Notes under the pieces: model-generated | The model's database searches: none | What the model saw: only the letters and a program-made list of their open reading frames with translations | Told to the model about the DNA's origin: nothing | NCBI RefSeq assembly: GCF_004365815.1 | Contig: NZ_SODD01000062.1 | Location: 1-9,799, forward strand | Direction of reading: 5' to 3' | Origin: Breznakia blatticola | Lineage (GTDB): Bacteria; Bacillota_I; Bacilli_A; Erysipelotrichales; Erysipelotrichaceae | Length of the DNA stretch: 9,799 nucleotides | Shown: in pieces, positions 1,029 to 9,776 of the stretch | Layout: every line of letters begins with the position of its first letter | How positions within the stretch are numbered: position 1 is the first letter of the stretch | Position numbers and translations under genes: made by a program

Positions 1029-1373
1029 TTACTTCCATCCTTTTGCTTCTAAATACTTATCTGGTATTCGTAACTCTATTTCCTCTTTTAATTCCTTAAA
1101 GAAAATATTAAAATCTGCTTTATCAAACCATTTTTGACTATTCTCTAAAGATACATAATTTTGTCCATGATTTATACTACAACCAAATCTTCCTCTTTCA
1201 TAATTCAATCTAATATTAAAGTAATTATATACCTCGAAATCTATGCTAAATGTTCTATGGTTAACATCATCATTTACATCAAATATTGCGAAATTATCCA
1301 CTCTATCCCCAAAATACTCACGTATTTTTTCGTCTAAACTTATTGCCATTTCGTGTGTGCTATTTAATTGCAT
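1029..1373 (-). CDS. Candidate immunity protein (114 aa) for the orphan-2 toxin tip; family not recognised
   Basis: ATG start with a strong SD, AAGGAGGA (1381-1388), 7 nt upstream. The SD is embedded in the end of the toxin ORF, and the two genes overlap by 14 nt. The protein is small and acidic with no signal peptide, sits directly 3' of a variable toxin tip, and is followed by a terminator. Confidence 0.7.
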   Translation of the reverse strand: MQLNSTHEMAISLDEKIREYFGDRVDNFAIFDVNDDVNHRTFSIDFEVYNYFNIRLNYERGRFGCSINHGQNYVSLENSQKWFDKADFNIFFKELKEEIELRIPDKYLEAKGWK

Positions 1374-2019
1374 ACCAATATCCTCCTTCTTCTATCAATC
1401 TTATATATCCATGTTCTGTTGTTAGATAAACCCATTCATTCCATAATGCTGTATCTTTAAAATCATATGGATACTGTGAAAATCTTATAGTTTTTCCAGC
1501 ATTAACTGCATCATCTAATACCGGTTTATTGAATAAATTAAACATATCATCATCTGTCAAATTATATTGATTTTTAATATCATTCCACTTCGTTCCTAAA
1601 TCAAAATATGTATCCCCTGTACCTTGAGCTTTTGTTATATAGGAATCCGGACTCCCTTCATAAAAATACTTTCCTAATGTCATGTTTTCTCCATTGACAT
1701 TTTTTACAGATATCGAGCGTAGTTCCAAATAATCTTCCCAAGGCATGGTATAGCCTGCATCTCTTACATTATGCCATTCATTATACCTGGCAGCATCTTC
1801 TTTAGACATTCCTTTTAGCCAATCATCAAAACTATCTCCACTGGTTCCCTTATTTGCTAGTGTGTCTAAATCAAGTGTAGTAGATGGTTTTGCAGTTACT
1901 TTACTAAATGCTGCTCCACCTGCTACTGTTGCTCCTGCCATAATTGCAAATGCCAATAGTGGATTACATCCATTTTCTATCAGGTATTGACTACCTAGAC
2001 CATCATATATACTCCACAA
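1360..2019 (-). CDS. Orphan toxin module 2: about 52 constant-region codons fused to an unassigned 161-aa C-terminal domain (5'-truncated, probably not independently translated)
   Basis: Residues 7-58, 'GLGSQYLIENGCNPLLAFAIMAGATVAGGAAFSKVTAKPSTTLDLDTLANKG', are near-identical to codons 288-339 of the 707-aa toxin. At the DNA level 1846-2001 matches 4066-4221 and 6918-7073. The only start is a TTG with no SD, and a stop lies 4 codons upstream. The C-terminal 161 aa (1363-1845) have no counterpart elsewhere in the window. Confidence 0.65.
   Translation of the reverse strand: MWSIYDGLGSQYLIENGCNPLLAFAIMAGATVAGGAAFSKVTAKPSTTLDLDTLANKGTSGDSFDDWLKGMSKEDAARYNEWHNVRDAGYTMPWEDYLELRSISVKNVNGENMTLGKYFYEGSPDSYITKAQGTGDTYFDLGTKWNDIKNQYNLTDDDMFNLFNKPVLDDAVNAGKTIRFSQYPYDFKDTALWNEWVYLTTEHGYIRLIEEGGYWYAIK
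1846..2001. repeat. 156-bp third copy of a constant-region segment (matches 4066..4221 and 6918..7073)
   Basis: Offset of 2220 nt to the orphan-1 copy. It encodes the segment from 'GLGSQ' to 'LA.KG'. Both ends are abrupt. Confidence 0.85.
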
Positions 2020-2205
2020 AACTATAAAGGACTAACCTATTTTGGCTTGTCCTCTTAAGAATTATAAGTGTTGCTTTAAGCAATTATCTATAGGTTTAGT
2101 AAAGCCACTTATTTTTTAAAGTGCCTTTTTATTTTGATATTGTCACTATTTTAACTAAAATAGCACTTCTTTCTAAAACTCTATTCTATAGTATCCAGTT
2201 TAATT

Positions 2206-2544
2206 TTAGAGTTGAATTTCTTTTTTTGTCAAATTATCAAAAAAACTTATCTTCCCATTTTCTTTAACTAATTGTATGTCAGATCCTATAGGAAAATTAT
2301 AAATCCCTAAAATTGCTGGTTCAATATTTGCAACAGTATTAAAATCCACAATAACTAGATTTTTAGGATTATTTACAAACTCATCTGTATCTATGTCAGA
2401 TAATATTCTCCATCCATTATCATTCTTATCAATGGATTTCTCACGAAAAAGCCATTTTACTTTACCATTGCCATTCAATATATTTTTAGACACTACAGTG
2501 CCTCCTGCATTTTCTAAGAATTTAATCATTTCTGTCATATTCAT
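2206..2544 (-). CDS. Imm33/DUF2185-like immunity protein (112 aa)
   Basis: The sequence '...DKNDNGWRILSDIDTDEFVNNPKNLVIVDFNTVANIEPAILGIYNFPIGSDIQL' fits my recollection of the DUF2185/Imm33 pattern: a conserved GW, an acidic stretch and a G-S motif. It overlaps the ankyrin gene by 23 nt. The start is ambiguous: ATGs at 2544, 2538 and 2529, with SD AAAGGA best spaced for 2538. Confidence 0.6.
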   Translation of the reverse strand: MNMTEMIKFLENAGGTVVSKNILNGNGKVKWLFREKSIDKNDNGWRILSDIDTDEFVNNPKNLVIVDFNTVANIEPAILGIYNFPIGSDIQLVKENGKISFFDNLTKKEIQL

Positions 2545-3040
2545 TCATCCTTTCTAACAACTTTTCTCTATGTCCCTGTTTTTTTGCAAGTTCATATGGT
2601 GAAACCCCGAACTTGTTTTGTGTCTGAAAATCAACAAAATCTTGTGCAAACCATAATTTATAGAAAGGTACTAATTCCTCATCAGTGTATTTCAAATTAA
2701 TTAACCACTGCAACGCAAGTCTGTTTTTTTTATCTAGTGCATTTATATCTACACCTTTATTTATAAATTCTTTGCATAGTTTATAAGTATCTTCAAGTGA
2801 ATGATTTGTTTGACCCAGCAAAACGTGTAGAACTGTTTCATTTTCTTTGTTTTTTGATAAAACATCCACATCTTTTTCCAGTAAAAAATTTGAGATATAA
2901 TAACGGCTTGCTAAATCTGAATTAGATAATGCATAATAGATTAAAGACTTGTTATCATAGAGTTTTTTCTCATCTCCTGGAATATAGTTTTTCTTAAATT
3001 CATCAATATTTTTCAATTTTGCTATTAAATCTATTTTCAT
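2522..3040 (-). CDS. Ankyrin-repeat immunity protein (172 aa)
   Basis: Ankyrin-like repeats are visible, for example 'NETVLHVLLGQ...LCKEFINKGVDINALDKKNRLALQWL'. The ATG start has SD AAAGAGGTG (3046-3054) 5 nt upstream, immediately after the GH-E toxin stop. Ankyrin-repeat proteins are an established immunity class in polymorphic toxin loci. Confidence 0.75.
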   Translation of the reverse strand: MKIDLIAKLKNIDEFKKNYIPGDEKKLYDNKSLIYYALSNSDLASRYYISNFLLEKDVDVLSKNKENETVLHVLLGQTNHSLEDTYKLCKEFINKGVDINALDKKNRLALQWLINLKYTDEELVPFYKLWFAQDFVDFQTQNKFGVSPYELAKKQGHREKLLERMNEYDRND

Positions 3041-3054
3041 CGTTGCACCTCTTT

Positions 3055-4899
3055 CTATTCAAATCTATGACTTCTATTATTAGCTGGTATTTCTGGCCAA
3101 TAATTAGCAGGATCATTGTACCAATCTCTAAACTCCTTCGGTGTCAATTCTCCATCTAGATATCTTTTGTACATATCTGAATATTTAGCGTCAGGTTTAT
3201 GTCCCATATCCCAAATTCCATTACGACTTGTTCCTGGTTCCCATTCTATAATGTCTCCAGTATTTGGGTCTCTTACAATTCCATCTGTATTTTTTGCATT
3301 TTCATAAACATCTTCTACAACACCTTTTCTATACGAAGGACGATTATTAGGATCTAAATAAGGTCTATTATCTATTATTTCAACAACTTCTCCTTCACCA
3401 ATAACTTCTATTGTGCCATCTTTATTGATAATTTTCTTTGCACCCGAATCCTTAAATACATTATCTAGTGAATTGACTTCATCTAATCCCTTAATACCTA
3501 CTTGCTTAAGGTCATCTATATTCTTAACTCCCAAGCTTAGTAAATCATCTGTGTTTTTGATTCCTAGTTTTGTTAAGTCATCTATACTTGTGATTTCTAG
3601 TTTTCCTAAATCGCTTGAGTTTTTTACTCCATATTTTAGTAAGTTATCTGCTTCTCTTCTTATATCAAGAATCGCATTTCCATTTACTTTGTTGTATGCA
3701 CTTATTTCATCTAGTTTATTTAATGCTTTTTGATATCTTAAATAGTCATCCATATCCATGTTTGGTGGCAATCCATCTGTTAACTTAGAATTTAGATATT
3801 TTTCATATCTTGCTGCCTCTGTTGCATCCATCATATCCATAAAGCTTTTCTTGCTATCAAAGATATCATCAATACTTTTATAGGTTGCTAAATCACCTAA
3901 ACCAATATGTTTTAAATCTTCTAAACTATTTACTCCGAATTTTGCCAAGTCATCTGCATTTTTAATTCCTAGTTTAACTAGATCATCACTATTCTTTACA
4001 CCTAGCTTAGCAAGGTCATCCATACTTGTGATTCCATGTTTTGCTAGTTCATCTACATTATTAATCCCTTTACTTGCTAGAGTGTCTAAATCAAGTGTGA
4101 TAGATGGTTTTGCTGTTACTTTACTAAATGCTGCTCCACCTGCTACAGTTGCTCCTGCCATAATTGCAAATGCCAATAGTGGATTACATCCATTTTCAAT
4201 TAGGTGTTGACTACCTAGACCTATCACCATTGCTTGTCCTGTTTCTATTCCTACTTTGATTGTGAAACTTCCTACTCTTGCTGCTGTTGTAGCTCCACTT
4301 AGTGAACCAAAAGTAGCTATATCAATTCCAATTGATATAAGTCCTCCAACTCCCAACATGACTCTTTCATCATCAGATAGTTTTTCTCCTGTCATTGTTG
4401 TTCCAGAACATGCTTCTGCAATGTTTTTTATACCACCTACGACAGGTATACAATCTAAGACAAAACTTAATCCAGATATAAAATCATCCGCTTCCATGTC
4501 ATGTGCAAACTTAGATCCTAGTACTGCATTCATGTATTCATCTTCAGATATTTTATCTGCTTTTATTATACCATCATCTATACCCTTTATGTATTTGTTA
4601 AAGTCATCACCTAAGTCGATGATCGTTTTCCTTTTGACAATATCTTCATAGGTTACTTCTACTTTTCTTACTTTTTTTGTCGTATATCCTTGATATGTAT
4701 TTGGATCTTGTATAACAACAATATCATCTTGATTGATACTTATATTTTCCGTTTTTAGTTTCATAATGTCAATCAATGAGATATCTTCTAGTTTTACTTT
4801 AATATCATCACAAAAGTCATCATCTACTTCTTCTAACAACGAATGCATTCCCGTACGGGTACTACTGTAGTTTGTTTGTTTTTGGTATCGTTTTCTCAA
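3055..4899 (-). CDS. Orphan toxin module 1: 5'-truncated PT-TG polymorphic toxin with a GH-E (HNH/EndoVII) nuclease C-terminus
   Basis: nt 3445-4984 align with 6297-7836 at a constant offset of 2852 nt, with no indels that I can see. That is about 14 aa differences in 483. The variable tip (3058-3450, 131 aa) contains 'WDMGHKPDAKY...PEIPANNRSHRFE', which matches the GH-E family signature. The ORF-track start is a TTG with no SD. The frame is open up to a stop near 5044 but contains no start codon there, and codons 1-33 of the full-length gene are missing. Confidence 0.8.
   Translation of the reverse strand: MRKRYQKQTNYSSTRTGMHSLLEEVDDDFCDDIKVKLEDISLIDIMKLKTENISINQDDIVVIQDPNTYQGYTTKKVRKVEVTYEDIVKRKTIIDLGDDFNKYIKGIDDGIIKADKISEDEYMNAVLGSKFAHDMEADDFISGLSFVLDCIPVVGGIKNIAEACSGTTMTGEKLSDDERVMLGVGGLISIGIDIATFGSLSGATTAARVGSFTIKVGIETGQAMVIGLGSQHLIENGCNPLLAFAIMAGATVAGGAAFSKVTAKPSITLDLDTLASKGINNVDELAKHGITSMDDLAKLGVKNSDDLVKLGIKNADDLAKFGVNSLEDLKHIGLGDLATYKSIDDIFDSKKSFMDMMDATEAARYEKYLNSKLTDGLPPNMDMDDYLRYQKALNKLDEISAYNKVNGNAILDIRREADNLLKYGVKNSSDLGKLEITSIDDLTKLGIKNTDDLLSLGVKNIDDLKQVGIKGLDEVNSLDNVFKDSGAKKIINKDGTIEVIGEGEVVEIIDNRPYLDPNNRPSYRKGVVEDVYENAKNTDGIVRDPNTGDIIEWEPGTSRNGIWDMGHKPDAKYSDMYKRYLDGELTPKEFRDWYNDPANYWPEIPANNRSHRFE
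3466..3630 (-). repeat. In-frame tandem 33-bp repeats, block 2, orphan-1 copy
   Basis: Same units as 6318..6482, with one G-to-E change (GKLEITS). Confidence 0.85.
3904..4068 (-). repeat. In-frame tandem 33-bp repeats, block 1, orphan-1 copy
   Basis: Same units as 6756..6920, with one A-to-V change (DDLVKLG). Confidence 0.85.
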
Positions 4900-5375
4900 G
4901 CTTTCTAGTGTACTTGTTTTATCACCTGCTTGAATAGAATATCCGGATTCTTTTGCAATTGCCTTTGCTTTTTGAATATATTCAAGTATGATTGGGAATC
5001 CAGTTTTTTTGAACTGAAAAAATAATCTGATGTAAAACCTACATTACTTTAAAACCTCTTCTAATCATAGTAAAGTAGGTTTCTTTACAAAAAACATTTC
5101 ATATCATCTTTTGTACTATAACAAGTTATCTTGATGTGACACTTTATTTTGGTGTTTTGTTTGTATAACCAAAAAGACCTTATTCACAGTATGTACAATC
5201 TGCTGATAATGGTCTCTATGTTTATTTCTTGTTTCTTATTTACTTTACATGTAAATTTCACCCATAAACATTTGCATATTATTTTTATTTATTCATCGCT
5301 TCTTCGTAAGTTACTTGGGATAGATTAATAAATTCTAATTTGCCAATTCACAATGTTTTTTCGTTATTAATAACC

Positions 5376-5798
5376 TTAGTAATTGTCAATACCTTCTTGA
5401 AAATAATCTTCAATGAAATCATCAAATGAACTATATCTTTCGTTCATCTTTTTTTCCCCAGGCTCCCATGAAAATACTTTTGAATCTTCAAAATTAGATT
5501 CTAAGCACATGATAAATTCTCCTAGATCATAAATCACTATAGCATTTTCATTTAACCCCAACTTTCTATATTTGATAGTTGCTTGAACCAAGGAAGAACC
5601 TAAATCACCTTCAATTCCTTCAATATCTATACCGCAAATTCCTCCCGATCCATAAGTCGATAAATAATCTTTGTATTGTTTAGGAAATTTCACATTTAAT
5701 TCATCTTCAACTTCTCTTATTCTTTTTTCTTCAATAGGTCCATAAAAATCACCAACATTGCTATATTCATTAATCATTTTTTTTATCTTCTCGTTCAT
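5376..5798 (-). CDS. SMI1/KNR4 (SUKH-1) family immunity protein (140 aa)
   Basis: 'IREVEDELNVKFPKQYKDYLSTYGSGGICG' is the typical SMI1_KNR4/SUKH N-terminal pattern. The ATG start has SD AAGGAGGA (5803-5810), and the gene begins 12 nt after the LHH toxin stop. Confidence 0.85.
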   Translation of the reverse strand: MNEKIKKMINEYSNVGDFYGPIEEKRIREVEDELNVKFPKQYKDYLSTYGSGGICGIDIEGIEGDLGSSLVQATIKYRKLGLNENAIVIYDLGEFIMCLESNFEDSKVFSWEPGEKKMNERYSSFDDFIEDYFQEGIDNY

Positions 5799-5810
5799 CA
5801 GTTCCTCCTT

Positions 5811-7934
5811 TTAGTAATTCGATGCACGCCATTTCCAATAATTATTTCTAAAGTTATTAAATTGCTTTTCTAAATTAGGATCATTCCTAAAACTTCCACC
5901 ATTTTCAACCAAACCATGCAATGTAGCACTATTATCACTATGTACGACTTCAGATATCTCAACCATTGAACCTGGTTCTCTTTGCGTTAAATGGTGTAAT
6001 TCCACAGCCGACTCACTACCGGCTGAATCAACAATGTATGGAGCTCTACCACTTTCCATTAACTGTTTGTTATTCAGTCCTTTAGCTTTGGGATTTGTGG
6101 GTATGTAATTAGGATCTATGTCTGTTTGATAAACTCTCCTTGATACATTTACATCCACTCCAGTCACCTTTACATTCCCTGAAATTTCATATGCTTTATA
6201 CTTTTCAGGTAGCCATTCTAAATCAACTTGTTCGCCTGTAAGTTTGAGATTCTTATTCCTATCCCCTATCGAATCAAGGACTTCATCTGTTGCTAACGAA
6301 CCCTTAAATACATTATCTAGTGAATTAACTTCATCTAATCCTTTAATACCTACTTGCTTAAGGTCATCGATATTCTTAACTCCTAAGCTTAGTAAATCAT
6401 CTGTGTTTTTAATTCCTAGTTTTGTTAAGTCATCTATACTTGTGATTCCTAATTTTCCTAAATCACTTGAGTTTTTTACTCCATATTTTAATAAGTTATC
6501 TGCTTCTCTTCTTATTTCAAGAATCGCATTTCCATTTACTTTATTGTATGCACTTATTTCATCTAGTTTATTTAATGCTTTTTGATATCGTAAATAGTCA
6601 TCCATATCCATGTTTGGTGGCAACCCATCTGTTAACTTAGAATTTAGATATTTTTCATATCTTGCTGCTTCTGTTGCATCCATCATATCCATGAAGCTTT
6701 TCTTACTATCAAAGATATCATCAATACTTTTATAGCTTGCTAAATCACCCAAACCAATATGTTTTAAATCTTCTAAACTATTTACTCCGAATTTTGCCAA
6801 GTCATCTGCATTTTTAATTCCTAGTTTAGCTAGATCATCACTATTCTTTACTCCTAGCTTAGCAAGGTCATCCATACTTGTGATTCCATGTTTTGCTAGT
6901 TCATCTACATTATTAATCCCTTTACTTGCTAGAGTGTCTAAATCAAGTGTGATAGATGGTTTTGCTGTTACTTTACTAAATGCTGCTCCACCTGCTACAG
7001 TTGCTCCTGCCATAATTGCAAATGCCAATAGTGGATTACATCCATTTTCAATTAGGTGTTGACTACCTAGACCTATCACCATTGCTTGTCCTGTTTCTAT
7101 TCCTACTTTGATTGTGAAACTTCCTACTTTTGCTGCTGTTGTAGCTCCACTTAGTGAACCAAAAGTAGCTATATCAATTCCAATTGACAATAGTCCTCCA
7201 ACTCCCAACATGACTCTTTCATCATCGGATAGTTTTTCTCCTGTCATTGTTGTTCCAGAACATGCTTCTGCAATATTTTTTATACCACCTACGACAGGTA
7301 TACAATCTAAGACAAAGCTTAATCCAGATATAAAATCATCCGCTTCCATGTCATGTGCAAACTTTGATCCTAGTACTGCATTCATGTATTCATCTTCAGA
7401 TATTTTATCTGCTTCTATTATACCATCATCTATACCTTTTATGTATTGATTAAAGTCATCACCTAAGTCGATAATTGTTTTTCCTTTGACAATATCTTCA
7501 TAGGATACTTCTACTTTTCTTACTTTTTTTGTCGTATATCCTTGATATGTATTTGGATCTTGTATAACAACAATATCATCTTGATTGACACTTATATTTT
7601 CCGTTTTTAGTTTCATAATGTCAATCAATGAGATATCTTCTAGTTTTACTTTAATATCATCGCAAAAGTCATTATCTACATCTTCTAACAACGAATGAAT
7701 TCCCGTACGTGTACTACTGTAGTTTGTTTGTTTTTGGTATCGTTTTCTCAAGCTTTCTAGTGTACTTGTTTTATCACCTGCTTGAATAGAATATCCGGAT
7801 TCTTTAGCAATTGTTTTTGCTTTTTGAATATACTCATTTGCTTTTTGTAGATTGGACCAATTGATAGAAACTGTGTTTTCCTCATTTACTCTGTTTTCCC
7901 ACGCTTGCTTATTTGAAAATATTGAGCGATTCAT
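5811..7934 (-). CDS. Full-length polymorphic toxin (707 aa): non-LXG N-terminus, pre-toxin TG motif, hydrophobic Gly/Ala-rich segment, two blocks of five 11-residue repeats, LHH (HNH/EndoVII) nuclease C-terminus
   Basis: ATG start with SD GAGGTGA 7 nt upstream, and a TAATG overlap with the upstream gene. The PT-TG-like motif is 'VVGGIKNIAEACSGTTMTGEKLSDDERVMLG' (about aa 214-243). The C-terminal 163 aa (5814-6302) contain 'SAVELHHLTQREPGSMVEISEVVHSDNSATLHGL', the LHH-family signature. An SUKH immunity gene follows immediately. Confidence 0.88.
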   Translation of the reverse strand: MNRSIFSNKQAWENRVNEENTVSINWSNLQKANEYIQKAKTIAKESGYSIQAGDKTSTLESLRKRYQKQTNYSSTRTGIHSLLEDVDNDFCDDIKVKLEDISLIDIMKLKTENISVNQDDIVVIQDPNTYQGYTTKKVRKVEVSYEDIVKGKTIIDLGDDFNQYIKGIDDGIIEADKISEDEYMNAVLGSKFAHDMEADDFISGLSFVLDCIPVVGGIKNIAEACSGTTMTGEKLSDDERVMLGVGGLLSIGIDIATFGSLSGATTAAKVGSFTIKVGIETGQAMVIGLGSQHLIENGCNPLLAFAIMAGATVAGGAAFSKVTAKPSITLDLDTLASKGINNVDELAKHGITSMDDLAKLGVKNSDDLAKLGIKNADDLAKFGVNSLEDLKHIGLGDLASYKSIDDIFDSKKSFMDMMDATEAARYEKYLNSKLTDGLPPNMDMDDYLRYQKALNKLDEISAYNKVNGNAILEIRREADNLLKYGVKNSSDLGKLGITSIDDLTKLGIKNTDDLLSLGVKNIDDLKQVGIKGLDEVNSLDNVFKGSLATDEVLDSIGDRNKNLKLTGEQVDLEWLPEKYKAYEISGNVKVTGVDVNVSRRVYQTDIDPNYIPTNPKAKGLNNKQLMESGRAPYIVDSAGSESAVELHHLTQREPGSMVEISEVVHSDNSATLHGLVENGGSFRNDPNLEKQFNNFRNNYWKWRASNY
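6318..6482 (-). repeat. In-frame tandem 33-bp repeats, block 2, five units, in the full-length toxin
   Basis: The units are GVKNSSDLGKL, GITSIDDLTKL, GIKNTDDLLSL, GVKNIDDLKQV and GIKGLDEVNSL. They are followed directly by DNVFK and the variable tip. Confidence 0.85.
6756..6920 (-). repeat. In-frame tandem 33-bp (11-codon) repeats, block 1, five units, in the full-length toxin
   Basis: The units are GINNVDELAKH, GITSMDDLAKL, GVKNSDDLAKL, GIKNADDLAKF and GVNSLEDLKHI, followed by a degenerate sixth unit GLGDLASYKSI. The consensus is G-[IV]-x-[NS]-x-[DE]-[DE]-L-x-K-h. Confidence 0.85.
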
Positions 7935-8377
7935 TATGAATCACCTCTCTGTTCCTCTTGTGCTTTTATTGCATTTGCGATCATATCACTTGTAATTGGT
8001 TGACCATCACTTGTAGTTCCTAAATCACTTTCGGACATCATTCCCTCATTCAAAAATCGTTGTGTTATTTTTAGAGCAAGCATTTCATCAAACTGCATAA
8101 AACTACGAATCATCTCAAGTAACTCATTATATAAAAACGTACAATTCAATTCTAACAATTCTATTTGCTTTAATACTGGTTGACTATACTCACTAATTTG
8201 TTTTTTCGCTGCTCCATTATATCCACTCAAAAAATCATTTATGAATTTCTCATGGTCATTTCGATATTTTCTATATCGTTCAAGATAGCGAAACATTTTT
8301 ACTGTATAGTCAATTTTCTCCTCGCTAAACTCAATTCGTTTACTTGTCCCAATTGCATCACTCATTAATACATTCAT
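7934..8377 (-). CDS. Helical accessory protein (147 aa from the MNVLMSD start), WXG100-like candidate immediately upstream of the toxin
   Basis: The ORF track gives 7934..8434. The ATG at 8377 forms an ATGA overlap with the stop of the 209-aa gene and has SD AGGGGA 7-8 nt upstream, so I prefer the shorter form. 'FLSGYNGAAKKQI' resembles a W-x-G-x-A helical-hairpin turn with Y in place of W. The stop overlaps the toxin ATG (TAATG). Confidence 0.7.
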   Translation of the reverse strand: MNVLMSDAIGTSKRIEFSEEKIDYTVKMFRYLERYRKYRNDHEKFINDFLSGYNGAAKKQISEYSQPVLKQIELLELNCTFLYNELLEMIRSFMQFDEMLALKITQRFLNEGMMSESDLGTTSDGQPITSDMIANAIKAQEEQRGDS

Positions 8378-9003
8378 ACATATTCCCCTATTAATGTTTC
8401 GACTGCTTTTTGCACTCGTTTTCTTGGATAACAATCCATTTCTTCTGTATTTATTTTATATATATTGAAATACCCATCTTCAACAAACAACACACCATTT
8501 TCTTGTTGACGAGTTTCTCGATTTATCTTTTGATAAAAGATAGCTTTGGTATCTGTGTATTCTTCCATATGTTTTAGAAATTTATCTTTCTTAATAAACT
8601 TCTTTCTATACTTATCGTCTCCAATTGCATCAAGGTTCGGTATTCTTGTAAGAATCGAAGCACATAAAATATCTTTATTTAACGGTACAATTTGTGTCAA
8701 ACCATCCATTTCAACACAAGCAATATACCTTCCTGATTCAAGTTGTGAAACACGTATTCCACCAATATTGATAAAGTGTTTTGCTTCTTCATATTGCATC
8801 AATAAATAAATCTGTTTTTTTCCTAAGTCTGTAAGTTTTCTATCCGTAGTAACAATTTGTTTTTTTATTAGTTGCTCAATGATTTCCTCATGTTCTTTTT
8901 CTCCTAAAAGTTGAAATGAAGGATATCCAATGAGTTTTGTTTTATTTGCGATCAAAGCTAATACAAATAATTCATTTTGTGTATATTGCATATTACTTTC
9001 CAT
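8374..9003 (-). CDS. 209-aa accessory protein; candidate toxin adaptor/chaperone (occupies the EsaE position of S. aureus-type loci)
   Basis: ORF-track ORF. It overlaps the 100-aa gene by 11 nt, with an alternative ATG at 8991 just after that gene's stop. It has no signal peptide or TM segment. The function is inferred only from gene order: small, small, about 200 aa, small, toxin, immunity. I cannot verify family membership by eye. Confidence 0.6.
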   Translation of the reverse strand: MESNMQYTQNELFVLALIANKTKLIGYPSFQLLGEKEHEEIIEQLIKKQIVTTDRKLTDLGKKQIYLLMQYEEAKHFINIGGIRVSQLESGRYIACVEMDGLTQIVPLNKDILCASILTRIPNLDAIGDDKYRKKFIKKDKFLKHMEEYTDTKAIFYQKINRETRQQENGVLFVEDGYFNIYKINTEEMDCYPRKRVQKAVETLIGEYV

Positions 9004-9295
9004 CCAAATCTGTGTGAATCTTTTTCTTCAGTAAGTTCGATAATTCTGAATCATACGTTGTAAATGATGTAAAAAGTTTAGGGAATGCTACAATAAGTTG
9101 TTCTTCATATTTTATTAGAATGTTAAAAAGTTCAATAAAGCCCTCAACACATCCTGCCGTAAATTGTTCATCATTTGACATTTGCGTGCATAGTTCTATT
9201 AAATCATCGTGTTCTTCTTGAATATTTAATTTGAAGCTTTTTTCCAATTCACTAATTGCTTGCAGCTTCTTTTTATTTACTTTGATTTCACCCAT
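8993..9295 (-). CDS. Small helical toxin-partner protein, 100 aa (copy B)
   Basis: Same evidence as 125..427. It differs at 2 residues (PKLFTSF here versus PELFKSF). It sits inside the right-hand 746-bp repeat and is contiguous with the intact downstream operon. Confidence 0.75.
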   Translation of the reverse strand: MGEIKVNKKKLQAISELEKSFKLNIQEEHDDLIELCTQMSNDEQFTAGCVEGFIELFNILIKYEEQLIVAFPKLFTSFTTYDSELSNLLKKKIHTDLDGK

Positions 9296-9645
9296 TCTAA
9301 CTCCCTATATTTTGCATTCCATGCAGTTTCAAAACTACCTAACGTTCCCTCTAATTTTCTAATATTTGCTCGTAAGTCTTCAATCAATGTTTTTGTATCT
9401 CTTATTGTTTTTTCACGATACGGATAATATGCTGCATATAATGAGGATTCATGAGGTCCATAACTTTTTAAGCTACTAAAACCACTATTTTCAAATGTTC
9501 TTAATTTTGCCTTTGCATCATCTATATATTCTTGCACATCGCAATAATTACTATAAATTTCATTACATTGTTGTTTTATTGCTTTCTTTTGTCTTGTTTC
9601 TTCTTCATCTGTCCACCAGATGATTGTATCTCCAAATCTTTGCAT
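9277..9645 (-). CDS. Small helical toxin-partner protein, 122 aa (copy B)
   Basis: Same evidence as 409..777. It differs at 1 residue (LRANI here versus LRTNI). It is the first gene of the intact operon. Confidence 0.75.
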   Translation of the reverse strand: MQRFGDTIIWWTDEEETRQKKAIKQQCNEIYSNYCDVQEYIDDAKAKLRTFENSGFSSLKSYGPHESSLYAAYYPYREKTIRDTKTLIEDLRANIRKLEGTLGSFETAWNAKYRELEWVKSK

Positions 9646-9730
9646 GTTAGAACATCCCTTTAATAACTGCTAGTATGGCACGAACCAAAGACCCCAATAT
9701 TCCTTAATGTCATTAAGTTAAGAATCCATT

Positions 9731-9776
9731 AACCAAGCAAAATTCATCGATGAAGTGAATTTTGCTTGGTTTTTTT
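9731..9776. terminator. Strong hairpin with a flanking T-tract (terminator-like; orientation ambiguous)
   Basis: AACCAAGCAAAATTCA (9731-9746), a 9-nt loop, TGAATTTTGCTTGGTT (9756-9771), then T-tract continuing to 9776 on the plus strand. An A-tract lies on the other side, so it could act bidirectionally and insulate the operon from whatever lies to the right of the window. Confidence 0.5.

Follow-up and report, generated by a model that had tools for sequence, protein, structure and literature searches.

A probable EsaD-type polymorphic-toxin locus with two downstream orphan cassettes in the gut bacterium Breznakia blatticola

The toxin array and its shared constant region

The window analysed here is a whole 9.8-kb contig (9,799 nucleotides, nt) of Breznakia blatticola, a cockroach-gut member of the Erysipelotrichaceae represented by a single genome of the species, and it carries an array of polymorphic-toxin genes in which a complete toxin gene is followed by two copies lacking their 5′ ends, here called orphan 2 and orphan 3. 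All long open reading frames (ORFs) of the window lie on the minus strand, as do the features described below unless stated otherwise. The complete toxin (5811–7934, 707 amino acids, aa) starts with an ATG behind a Shine–Dalgarno (SD) sequence and is 100% identical to WP_134171344.1 (P0001) of Breznakia blatticola. Its domain order is a helical N-terminal region, a PT-TG/glycine-rich hydrophobic segment (about 7158–7325), a first block of helix-hairpin-helix (HhH) repeats, a linker with the motif EDAARY, a second HhH block and a predicted LHH nuclease tip (about 5820–6074), and it is followed by a candidate immunity gene of the SUKH_5 (SMI1-KNR4) type with its own SD (5376–5798, 140 aa). Orphan 2 occupies 3055–5043, its frame being open from 5043 and its homology starting at 4984 (codon 34), and it ends in a predicted GH-E nuclease tip (about 3058–3285). 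Downstream of it lie genes for an ankyrin-repeat protein (2522–3040, 172 aa), which is a candidate immunity gene for the GH-E tip, and for an Imm33 immunity protein (2206–2544, 112 aa), both recognised by Pfam and preceded by an SD. Orphan 3 (1360–2019, 219 aa) consists of a piece of the constant region (1847–2005), a diverged EDAARY linker and a tip of about 130 aa, called tip 3 (about 1363–1760), and its stop overlaps by 14 nt a candidate immunity gene of 114 aa (1029–1373). A terminator-like hairpin with a T run (934–953) stands after the last cassette.

The two long copies share almost the entire constant region. Self-BLASTN aligned 3445–4984 of orphan 2 with 6297–7836 of the complete toxin (codons 34–546) over 1540 nt at 96.883% identity, with 48 mismatches, 0 gaps, an offset of 2852 nt and E = 0, and a separate repeat search agreed; the collinear, indel-free pair described in the original prediction was thus recovered exactly. 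DNA identity has a sharp onset at codon 34 in the 707-aa gene and collapses right after ...SLDNVFK (codon 544), the junction that had been proposed. Across codons 34–545, 46 codons differ between the long copies, 30 synonymously and 16 non-synonymously. Codons 62–544 (483 aa) hold 14 of the amino-acid differences, precisely the number that had been estimated; T41A, upstream of these codons, and G545D, at the junction, make up the remainder. The synonymous and non-synonymous divergences are dS 0.104 and dN 0.013, which gives an omega of 0.125, and the synonymous excess has a binomial P of 7e-12. Moreover, the mismatches are unevenly spread, and a perfect tract of 276 nt (4001–4276 = 6853–7128, permutation P 0.003) encloses the segment common to orphan 3.

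Orphan 3 shares codons about 286–339 with both long genes. Its 1847–2005 aligned by self-BLASTN with 4067–4226 and 6919–7078 at 93.1% identity over 160 columns with one gap, and the longest perfect stretch in this homology of 155–160 nt is about 50 nt. Past KG339 it carries a diverged form of the linker motif (MDATEAARYEKY...MDMDDYL) compared with MSKEDAARYNEW...MPWEDYL of the long genes, in which MSKEDAARYNEW sits between the two HhH blocks; the motif is present in relatives from Thomasclavelia too. The third gene had been read as a constant-region piece fused to a third unrelated tip, and the first half of this description stands, while the linker that persists beyond KG339 shows that not everything past that point is unrelated.

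Neither orphan has the initiation region of the complete gene. We expressed SD strength as the duplex energy of the 3′ end of 16S ribosomal RNA with the 22 nt upstream of each start. The ATG of the complete toxin has an SD of −10.0 kcal/mol and the five candidate immunity genes range from −10.0 to −12.6 kcal/mol (among them SUKH_5 −12.2, ankyrin −10.4, Imm33 −10.0 and the 114-aa gene −12.6), whereas the candidate starts of the orphans, including those chosen by RefSeq and GenBank, have only −1.5 to −4.7 kcal/mol. For orphan 2 these starts are TTG 4899 (−4.7) and ATG 4848 (−3.4), with no ATG before 4848, and for orphan 3 they are TTG 2019 (−3.1) and ATG 1941 (−1.5). Orphan 2 has neither codons 1–33 nor the ATG and the SD; its 5′ breakpoint is sharp, its frame is preceded by stops, and it retains 511 of the 544 constant-region codons (94%) at 97% identity. 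Orphan 3 is without about 287 codons, and an in-frame stop lies a few codons upstream of its homology. These features bear out the earlier description of one complete gene with two 5′-truncated copies, and on sequence both downstream copies match the published definition of orphan toxin/immunity modules, although in RefSeq and GenBank each is entered as an ordinary gene that begins at an internal start. From the first gene of the array, a small helper described below, to the last cassette, the site at 953–934 is the only intergenic terminator-like site on the minus strand, and hence the cassettes probably share the transcript of the toxin; the other minus-strand match (7945–7925) spans the toxin start codon.

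The Breznakia genome contains at least two further paralogues on other contigs, of 4.2 and 33 kb, which were compared as proteins only: P0002 combines a complete N-terminus with another HNH-like tip, and P0004, truncated near residue 125, ends in an AHH tip. The toxin family is very rare, with ten matches among 5.8 billion proteins. Among the four paralogues, the variant sites that split them two by two fall into three incompatible partitions that are clustered by position (residues 144 and 151; residue 174; residues 293, 329 and 431).

The two HhH repeat blocks ('DDLAKLGIKN...') lie at about 6750–6920 and 6310–6480 in the complete toxin and at about 3900–4070 and 3460–3630 in orphan 2; they are not found in orphan 3 or in the Thomasclavelia toxins. 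Their assignment rests on sub-threshold matches to TfoX_C, polymerase lambda fingers and the C-terminal domain of the RNA polymerase alpha subunit and on a tandem period of 33 nt. NCBIfam returned only a sub-threshold match to the NusA C-terminal repeat, reflecting the HhH repeats, and hhalign matched the blocks to a block of 14 repeats in the LXG toxin P0005. They may be a DNA-binding module that travels with nuclease tips.

Toxin tips, immunity genes and the route of export

The tips of the two long genes belong to predicted nuclease families. The LHH family (PF14411) was matched by Pfam at E 9.9e-22 over residues 621–705 of 707 (profile 1–75 of 76, 77.4 bits against a gathering cut-off of 23.3) and the GH-E family (PF14410) at E 1.6e-22 over residues 539–614 of the 614-aa ORF (profile 1–68 of 68, 80.3 bits against a cut-off of 25), in agreement with the names first given to them; both are toxin families of the HNH/EndoVII fold, and the tips are predicted nucleases on this basis. 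PT-TG (PF14449) was matched at E 4.6e-08 in the complete toxin and once more at E 3.1e-07, both above the gathering score. The gene after the LHH tip matches SUKH_5 at E 5.8e-29, and an LHH-like fragment and a SUKH_5 gene also stand side by side in a Pseudogracilibacillus locus (L005). The ankyrin-repeat gene matches Ank_4 at E 8.1e-05, just above the cut-off, and Ank_2 at E 3.9e-04, below it, and the Imm33 gene matches its family at E 4.5e-23. Thus every tip has its own candidate downstream immunity gene or genes, as the original prediction had it, the 114-aa gene being recognised by its co-occurrence with tip 3 across taxa. The ankyrin and Imm33 genes overlap; one of them may be cognate to the GH-E tip, and the other may be a stray that has outlived its toxin. 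The Imm33 gene is either second in the orphan 2 cassette or such a stray.

A profile search of all three C-termini, suggested as a check, placed the LHH and GH-E tips in toxin families and left the third without a Pfam match. Tip 3 matched no family in Pfam or NCBIfam, also when 25 members of its family were scanned against Pfam, and a sequence search of the PDB gave 0 matches at E 10. In an exhaustive profile search its family had 766 clusters at E ≤1e-3, of which 154 reached 1e-30, and in all of them the domain stands at the extreme C-terminus; a word-indexed search returned short proteins only. The carriers include P0197, a CdiA protein of 2301 aa with a two-partner secretion (TPS) domain, haemagglutinin repeats and DUF637, P0101, an LXG protein of 682 aa, and P0111, a PT-TG protein of 727 aa. 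The AlphaFold model of tip 3 has a confident core, with a predicted local distance difference test score (pLDDT) above 90 for 89 residues, and Foldseek found no match for it, the best E values being 0.79 in the PDB and 0.61 in BFVD. The 114-aa partner likewise has no family match, but in two other loci (L002 and L005) a tip-3 homologue is followed in each case by an overlapping gene of 113–114 aa that is 41–48% identical to window 1029–1373. Because the domain takes the C-terminal position on CdiA, LXG and PT-TG carriers and keeps a conserved partner gene, we regard tip 3, on sequence grounds, as a genuine polymorphic-toxin tip without known fold or activity.

Short tip-3 homologues, on metagenomic contigs and in Pseudogracilibacillus, stand in cassette arrays together with barnase-type ribonuclease/barstar, PT-HINT, TNT and SUKH genes. 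The long array of orphan cassettes in Pseudogracilibacillus (L005 8001–14000) has two tip-3/immunity pairs, and that in L002 (1800–12000) has barnase-type ribonuclease/barstar, PT-HINT, SUKH-3 and PoNi genes and IS110 copies. These arrays indicate that the tip/immunity pairs of the window circulate among distant Bacillota.

Upstream of the complete toxin, four genes are arranged as in the EsaD modules of type VIIb secretion (T7SSb). They encode a 122-aa helper in the esxC position (9277–9645), a 100-aa helper in the esxB position (8993–9295), a 209-aa DUF5081 protein (8374–9003), which is a putative targeting chaperone of the EsaE type, and a helper of 146–166 aa, its start codon being uncertain, in the esxD position (7934–8434). 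The DUF5081 protein matches PF16887 at E 3.1e-13, above the gathering score, and EsaE of Staphylococcus aureus is a DUF5081 member required for export of the EsaD nuclease (PMC12478183). Yang et al. showed that the four genes esxC-esxB-esaE-esxD form a conserved cluster, which stands directly upstream either of esaD or of esaD-like genes whose toxin domains are different (PMC10653861). The order and sizes in the window match esxC-esxB-esaE-esxD-esaD-esaG, with proteins of 122, 100, 209 and 146–166 aa and then the toxin. In addition, the only other genome with a relative in our genome scan (33% identity), a metagenome-assembled genome (MAG) of Thomasclavelia, has a module of 120 aa, 108 aa, DUF5081, 120 aa and a PT-TG toxin immediately behind YukC/EssB and an FtsK_SpoIIIE ATPase of the EssC type with 1262 aa. 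The Breznakia and Thomasclavelia helpers are 29% (122 aa), 23% (100 aa) and 27% (146–166 aa) identical, and the Thomasclavelia counterpart of the last has a sub-threshold WXG100 match (E 0.044). The small helpers of the window gave no WXG100 or other significant Pfam match at E 10, noise only. Gene order and sizes, the DUF5081 protein and the synteny of the Thomasclavelia relative with EssB and EssC together place the locus with the EsaD-type T7SSb substrates, and we assign it as such a module by synteny. The C-terminal YRELE (YxxxE) of the 122-aa helper was considered as a type VII export signal and was not relied on; it is not found in the Thomasclavelia homologue.

The Thomasclavelia genome also contains an orphan. 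It is 99.4% identical to the complete gene over 1252 nt and begins 105 nt past the start codon of that gene; its tip is a different one, with a separate small gene downstream. In this MAG the two genes lie at L001 3028–4764 and 9929–11725 (= L006 10001–11737 and 16950–18698) and repeat the Breznakia layout: the complete toxin stands behind EssB/EssC and helpers, and after it come an IS110 transposase, a fragment of a ribonuclease together with a SUKH gene, and finally the orphan, which is short of only about 35 N-terminal codons. A truncation point common to the Breznakia and Thomasclavelia orphans was considered and rejected: about 15 aligned residues separate the two breakpoints, and P0004, a third orphan, is truncated near residue 125. 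Since the breakpoints differ between orphans, there is no fixed truncation site.

A direct repeat of 746 nt, 98.9% identical by BLASTN (92–837 and 8960–9705), brackets the whole toxin array, and its second copy contains a second helper pair (a 122-aa gene at 409–777 and a 100-aa gene at 125–427). In this copy, which follows the last orphan cassette, the first 15 codons of DUF5081 are retained before the sequence diverges into a stop, 91 nt short of the contig end; an insertion-sequence (IS) insertion, another module or an assembly break could be the cause. Repeats of this kind could delete or duplicate the entire 8-kb array. Adjoining the start of the 122-aa helper gene is a small frame (779–916 and 9647–9705) with the ending '...KKRQGILGSLVRAILAVIKGMF', of which the last 20 codons fall inside the 746-nt repeat; it may encode a small membrane peptide or represent the end of a gene lying upstream. 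At 9731–9771 on the plus strand, immediately upstream of the first helper gene, a palindrome with a 17-bp stem and a T run resembles the terminator of a plus-strand transcript, and no plus-strand gene is evident. An Rfam search of the window returned 0 RNA families, promoter-like sites were not enriched (45 compared with 53.4 ± 8.3 in shuffles), and the spacers 4985–5375, 2020–2205 and 838–1028 and both contig ends had no similarity to the other sequences compared. The T7SSb EsaD-type assignment, the helper genes, the bracketing repeat and the further paralogues were not part of the original prediction.

History of the array and competing explanations

Taken together, we consider it quite probable that the locus as a whole is a polymorphic-toxin locus of the EsaD kind served by a T7SSb, with a complete LHH toxin and two downstream orphan cassettes. 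The complete toxin would be translated, bound by the helpers, exported through the T7SSb and would cut DNA in neighbouring cells. The orphans, having neither the initiation region nor the N-terminal end that would bind the helpers, would not be exported. Their immunity genes, which have strong SD sequences and are probably co-transcribed, would still protect against relatives that use the same tips. The low omega implies that the long copies diverged while both lineages encoded a working protein, and on the simplest reading orphan 2 would be a formerly complete toxin that was recently displaced by an incoming block with the LHH gene and its immunity gene, joined at codon 34. If RecA-type crossing-over took place within the 1.5-kb direct repeats, the LHH tip would be lost together with the SUKH_5 gene, and the GH-E tip would come to stand behind the expressed 5′ end. 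Recombination within the 155-nt homology would bring tip 3 there at a much lower frequency and yield a toxin with neither HhH block, which is the natural state of the Thomasclavelia toxins. The 276-nt tract and the mosaic of the paralogues point to gene conversion, and we give them limited weight because short-read assembly across identical stretches could produce or distort both. Silence of the orphans and exchange of tips are what we infer.

Several observations count against this proposal. The 9.8-kb contig contains no T7SSb core gene, and the link to T7SSb consists of synteny and the Thomasclavelia relative. The toxin N-terminus (residues 1–200) has no LXG match in Pfam at E 10, hhalign of the toxin to two LXG proteins aligned the HhH repeats only, and the AlphaFold model of residues 1–210, from an alignment of 6 sequences, is helical but unusable (pLDDT 36.5). 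Orphan 2 is an intact open frame of 643 codons in a genome of 30% GC, is annotated as a gene and could be translated from an internal start. The identical 276-nt tract exceeds the usual k-mers of assemblers, and assembly could affect both the join of tip to 5′ end and the paralogue mosaic. Moreover, a metagenome scan gave 0 relatives among 600 pattern matches, and the species is represented by one genome.

The alternative that fares best is that the orphan toxin frames are inert relics of displaced toxins, that only the immunity genes matter and that the fragments are never reused. The contrast between weak SD sequences at the orphan starts and the strong ones kept by the immunity genes would be expected under this explanation, and the homology of orphan 3, some 155 nt long and 93% identical, has about 50 nt of perfect identity and is a poor substrate for recombination. 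The signature of purifying selection is also what a recently retired gene would show and does not need a present function. However, orphan 2 has stayed open over all its codons without a stop or frameshift in an AT-rich genome, the 1540-nt direct repeat at 97% is an efficient RecA substrate whatever its purpose, and the perfect tract together with the paralogue mosaic suggests ongoing exchange. Reactivation of an orphan by recombination with the main gene has furthermore been demonstrated for Salmonella Rhs, in the account that PMC7790226 gives of Koskiniemi et al. 2014. We hold the relic explanation to be unlikely.

It is considerably less likely that the orphans are expressed from their internal starts (TTG 4899 or ATG 4848; TTG 2019 or ATG 1941) as shortened toxins or as intracellular immunity partners. 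Both are intact ORFs annotated by RefSeq and GenBank, the constant region of orphan 2 has an omega of 0.125, and there is no terminator-like site between the orphans and the upstream operon. On the other hand, the SD energies at these starts are far from the −10 or better of the neighbouring genes, and recent displacement would account equally well for the low omega. Orphan 2 is also without the N-terminal 33 residues and orphan 3 without the whole N-terminal region, the part by which EsaD, itself weakly recognised as LXG, binds its export partners (PMC10653861). That the arrangement is partly an artefact, with paralogues misjoined in a short-read draft, is very improbable: the contig does end in or beside repeats, paralogues do lie on the 4.2- and 33-kb contigs, the long copies do share the identical 276-nt tract, and chimeric joins would also give the mosaic, but the 48 differences fall on both sides of that tract, the copies are 2852 nt apart with their own tips, immunity genes and spacers, and an independent MAG of another genus has the same arrangement of complete gene and orphan.

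Beyond the preferred reading of an EsaD-type locus with two orphan cassettes, we put forward a wider proposal only tentatively and as somewhat short of probable, namely that tip 3 and its partner are an undescribed family with a fold not in the PDB, found in at least 766 clusters and moving among type V (T5SS), type VII (T7SS) and other carriers, and that near-complete orphans (minus about 35 codons, in two genera) reflect a recurrent way of retiring and re-arming toxins by exchange of the 5′ end. The locus extends the EsaD-type T7SSb module and the storage of orphan cassettes to Erysipelotrichia, gut bacteria whose antagonism is little studied. With a 1.5-kb repeat at 97% beside a homology of 155 nt, it is a natural substrate for measuring tip switching, and it flags a widespread toxin tip/immunity pair without known family, fold or activity. 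The current understanding of polymorphic toxins is unchanged by it.

Comparison with known systems

In contact-dependent inhibition (CDI), Rhs and Neisseria MafB loci, a full-length toxin gene is followed by 5′-truncated tip/immunity cassettes that have homology to its constant region. Orphan cdiA-CT/cdiI and rhs-CT/rhsI modules were reportedly described by Poole et al. in 2011 and Koskiniemi et al. in 2014. The Breznakia array is similar in having a full-length toxin followed by 5′-truncated cassettes. It differs from CDI and Rhs in its route, which is the T5SS or the type VI secretion system there and T7SSb here, in its unrelated constant region, and in being without a VENN or PxxxxDPxGL junction motif. 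The presence of tip 3 on the CdiA protein P0197 nevertheless indicates that tips are shared across these secretion systems.

A precedent for orphans of the T7SS, and one that supports the kinship originally claimed, is Enterococcus faecalis OG1RF, in which OG1RF_11111, OG1RF_11113 and OG1RF_11123 lie downstream of full-length toxins, have homologous 5′ ends, unrelated 3′ ends and their own immunity genes, and in which the orphan tips have homologues among the full-length toxins found elsewhere (PMC7790226). The Breznakia array shares each of these properties: toxin fragments downstream, common 5′ homology, unrelated tips, own candidate immunity genes and tip homologues elsewhere. In contrast to OG1RF, orphan 2 keeps 511 of 544 constant codons and not a short stretch, and the carrier is EsaD-like and not an LXG protein recognised by Pfam. 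In the T7SSb of Listeria, start-less truncated copies of lrhA (Rhs) and essC keep the constant part and have a different variable end, and they were suggested to be templates for diversification (PMC10327511). The proteins there are an Rhs cage toxin and the EssC ATPase, and helpers are absent beside the truncated copies, whereas the Breznakia orphans share their array with a complete helper set.

In gene order and sizes the Breznakia locus matches the EsaD module of S. aureus (esxC-esxB-esaE-esxD-esaD-esaG), its small helpers being putative counterparts by position. Compared with EsaD and YeeF-like proteins, its N-terminus and helpers have no detectable LXG or WXG100 similarity, its tips are LHH and GH-E instead of the EsaD nuclease domain, the immunity protein is SUKH_5 instead of EsaG (DUF600), the constant region has two HhH repeat blocks, and the host belongs to Erysipelotrichia, for which no study of a T7SS toxin was found in the literature searched. 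The layout is one well known from bacterial warfare loci, and the locus is a variation within a well-described theme; what is distinctive in it is the host class, the divergent N-terminus, the HhH blocks, an orphan with 94% of the constant region and one uncharacterised tip.

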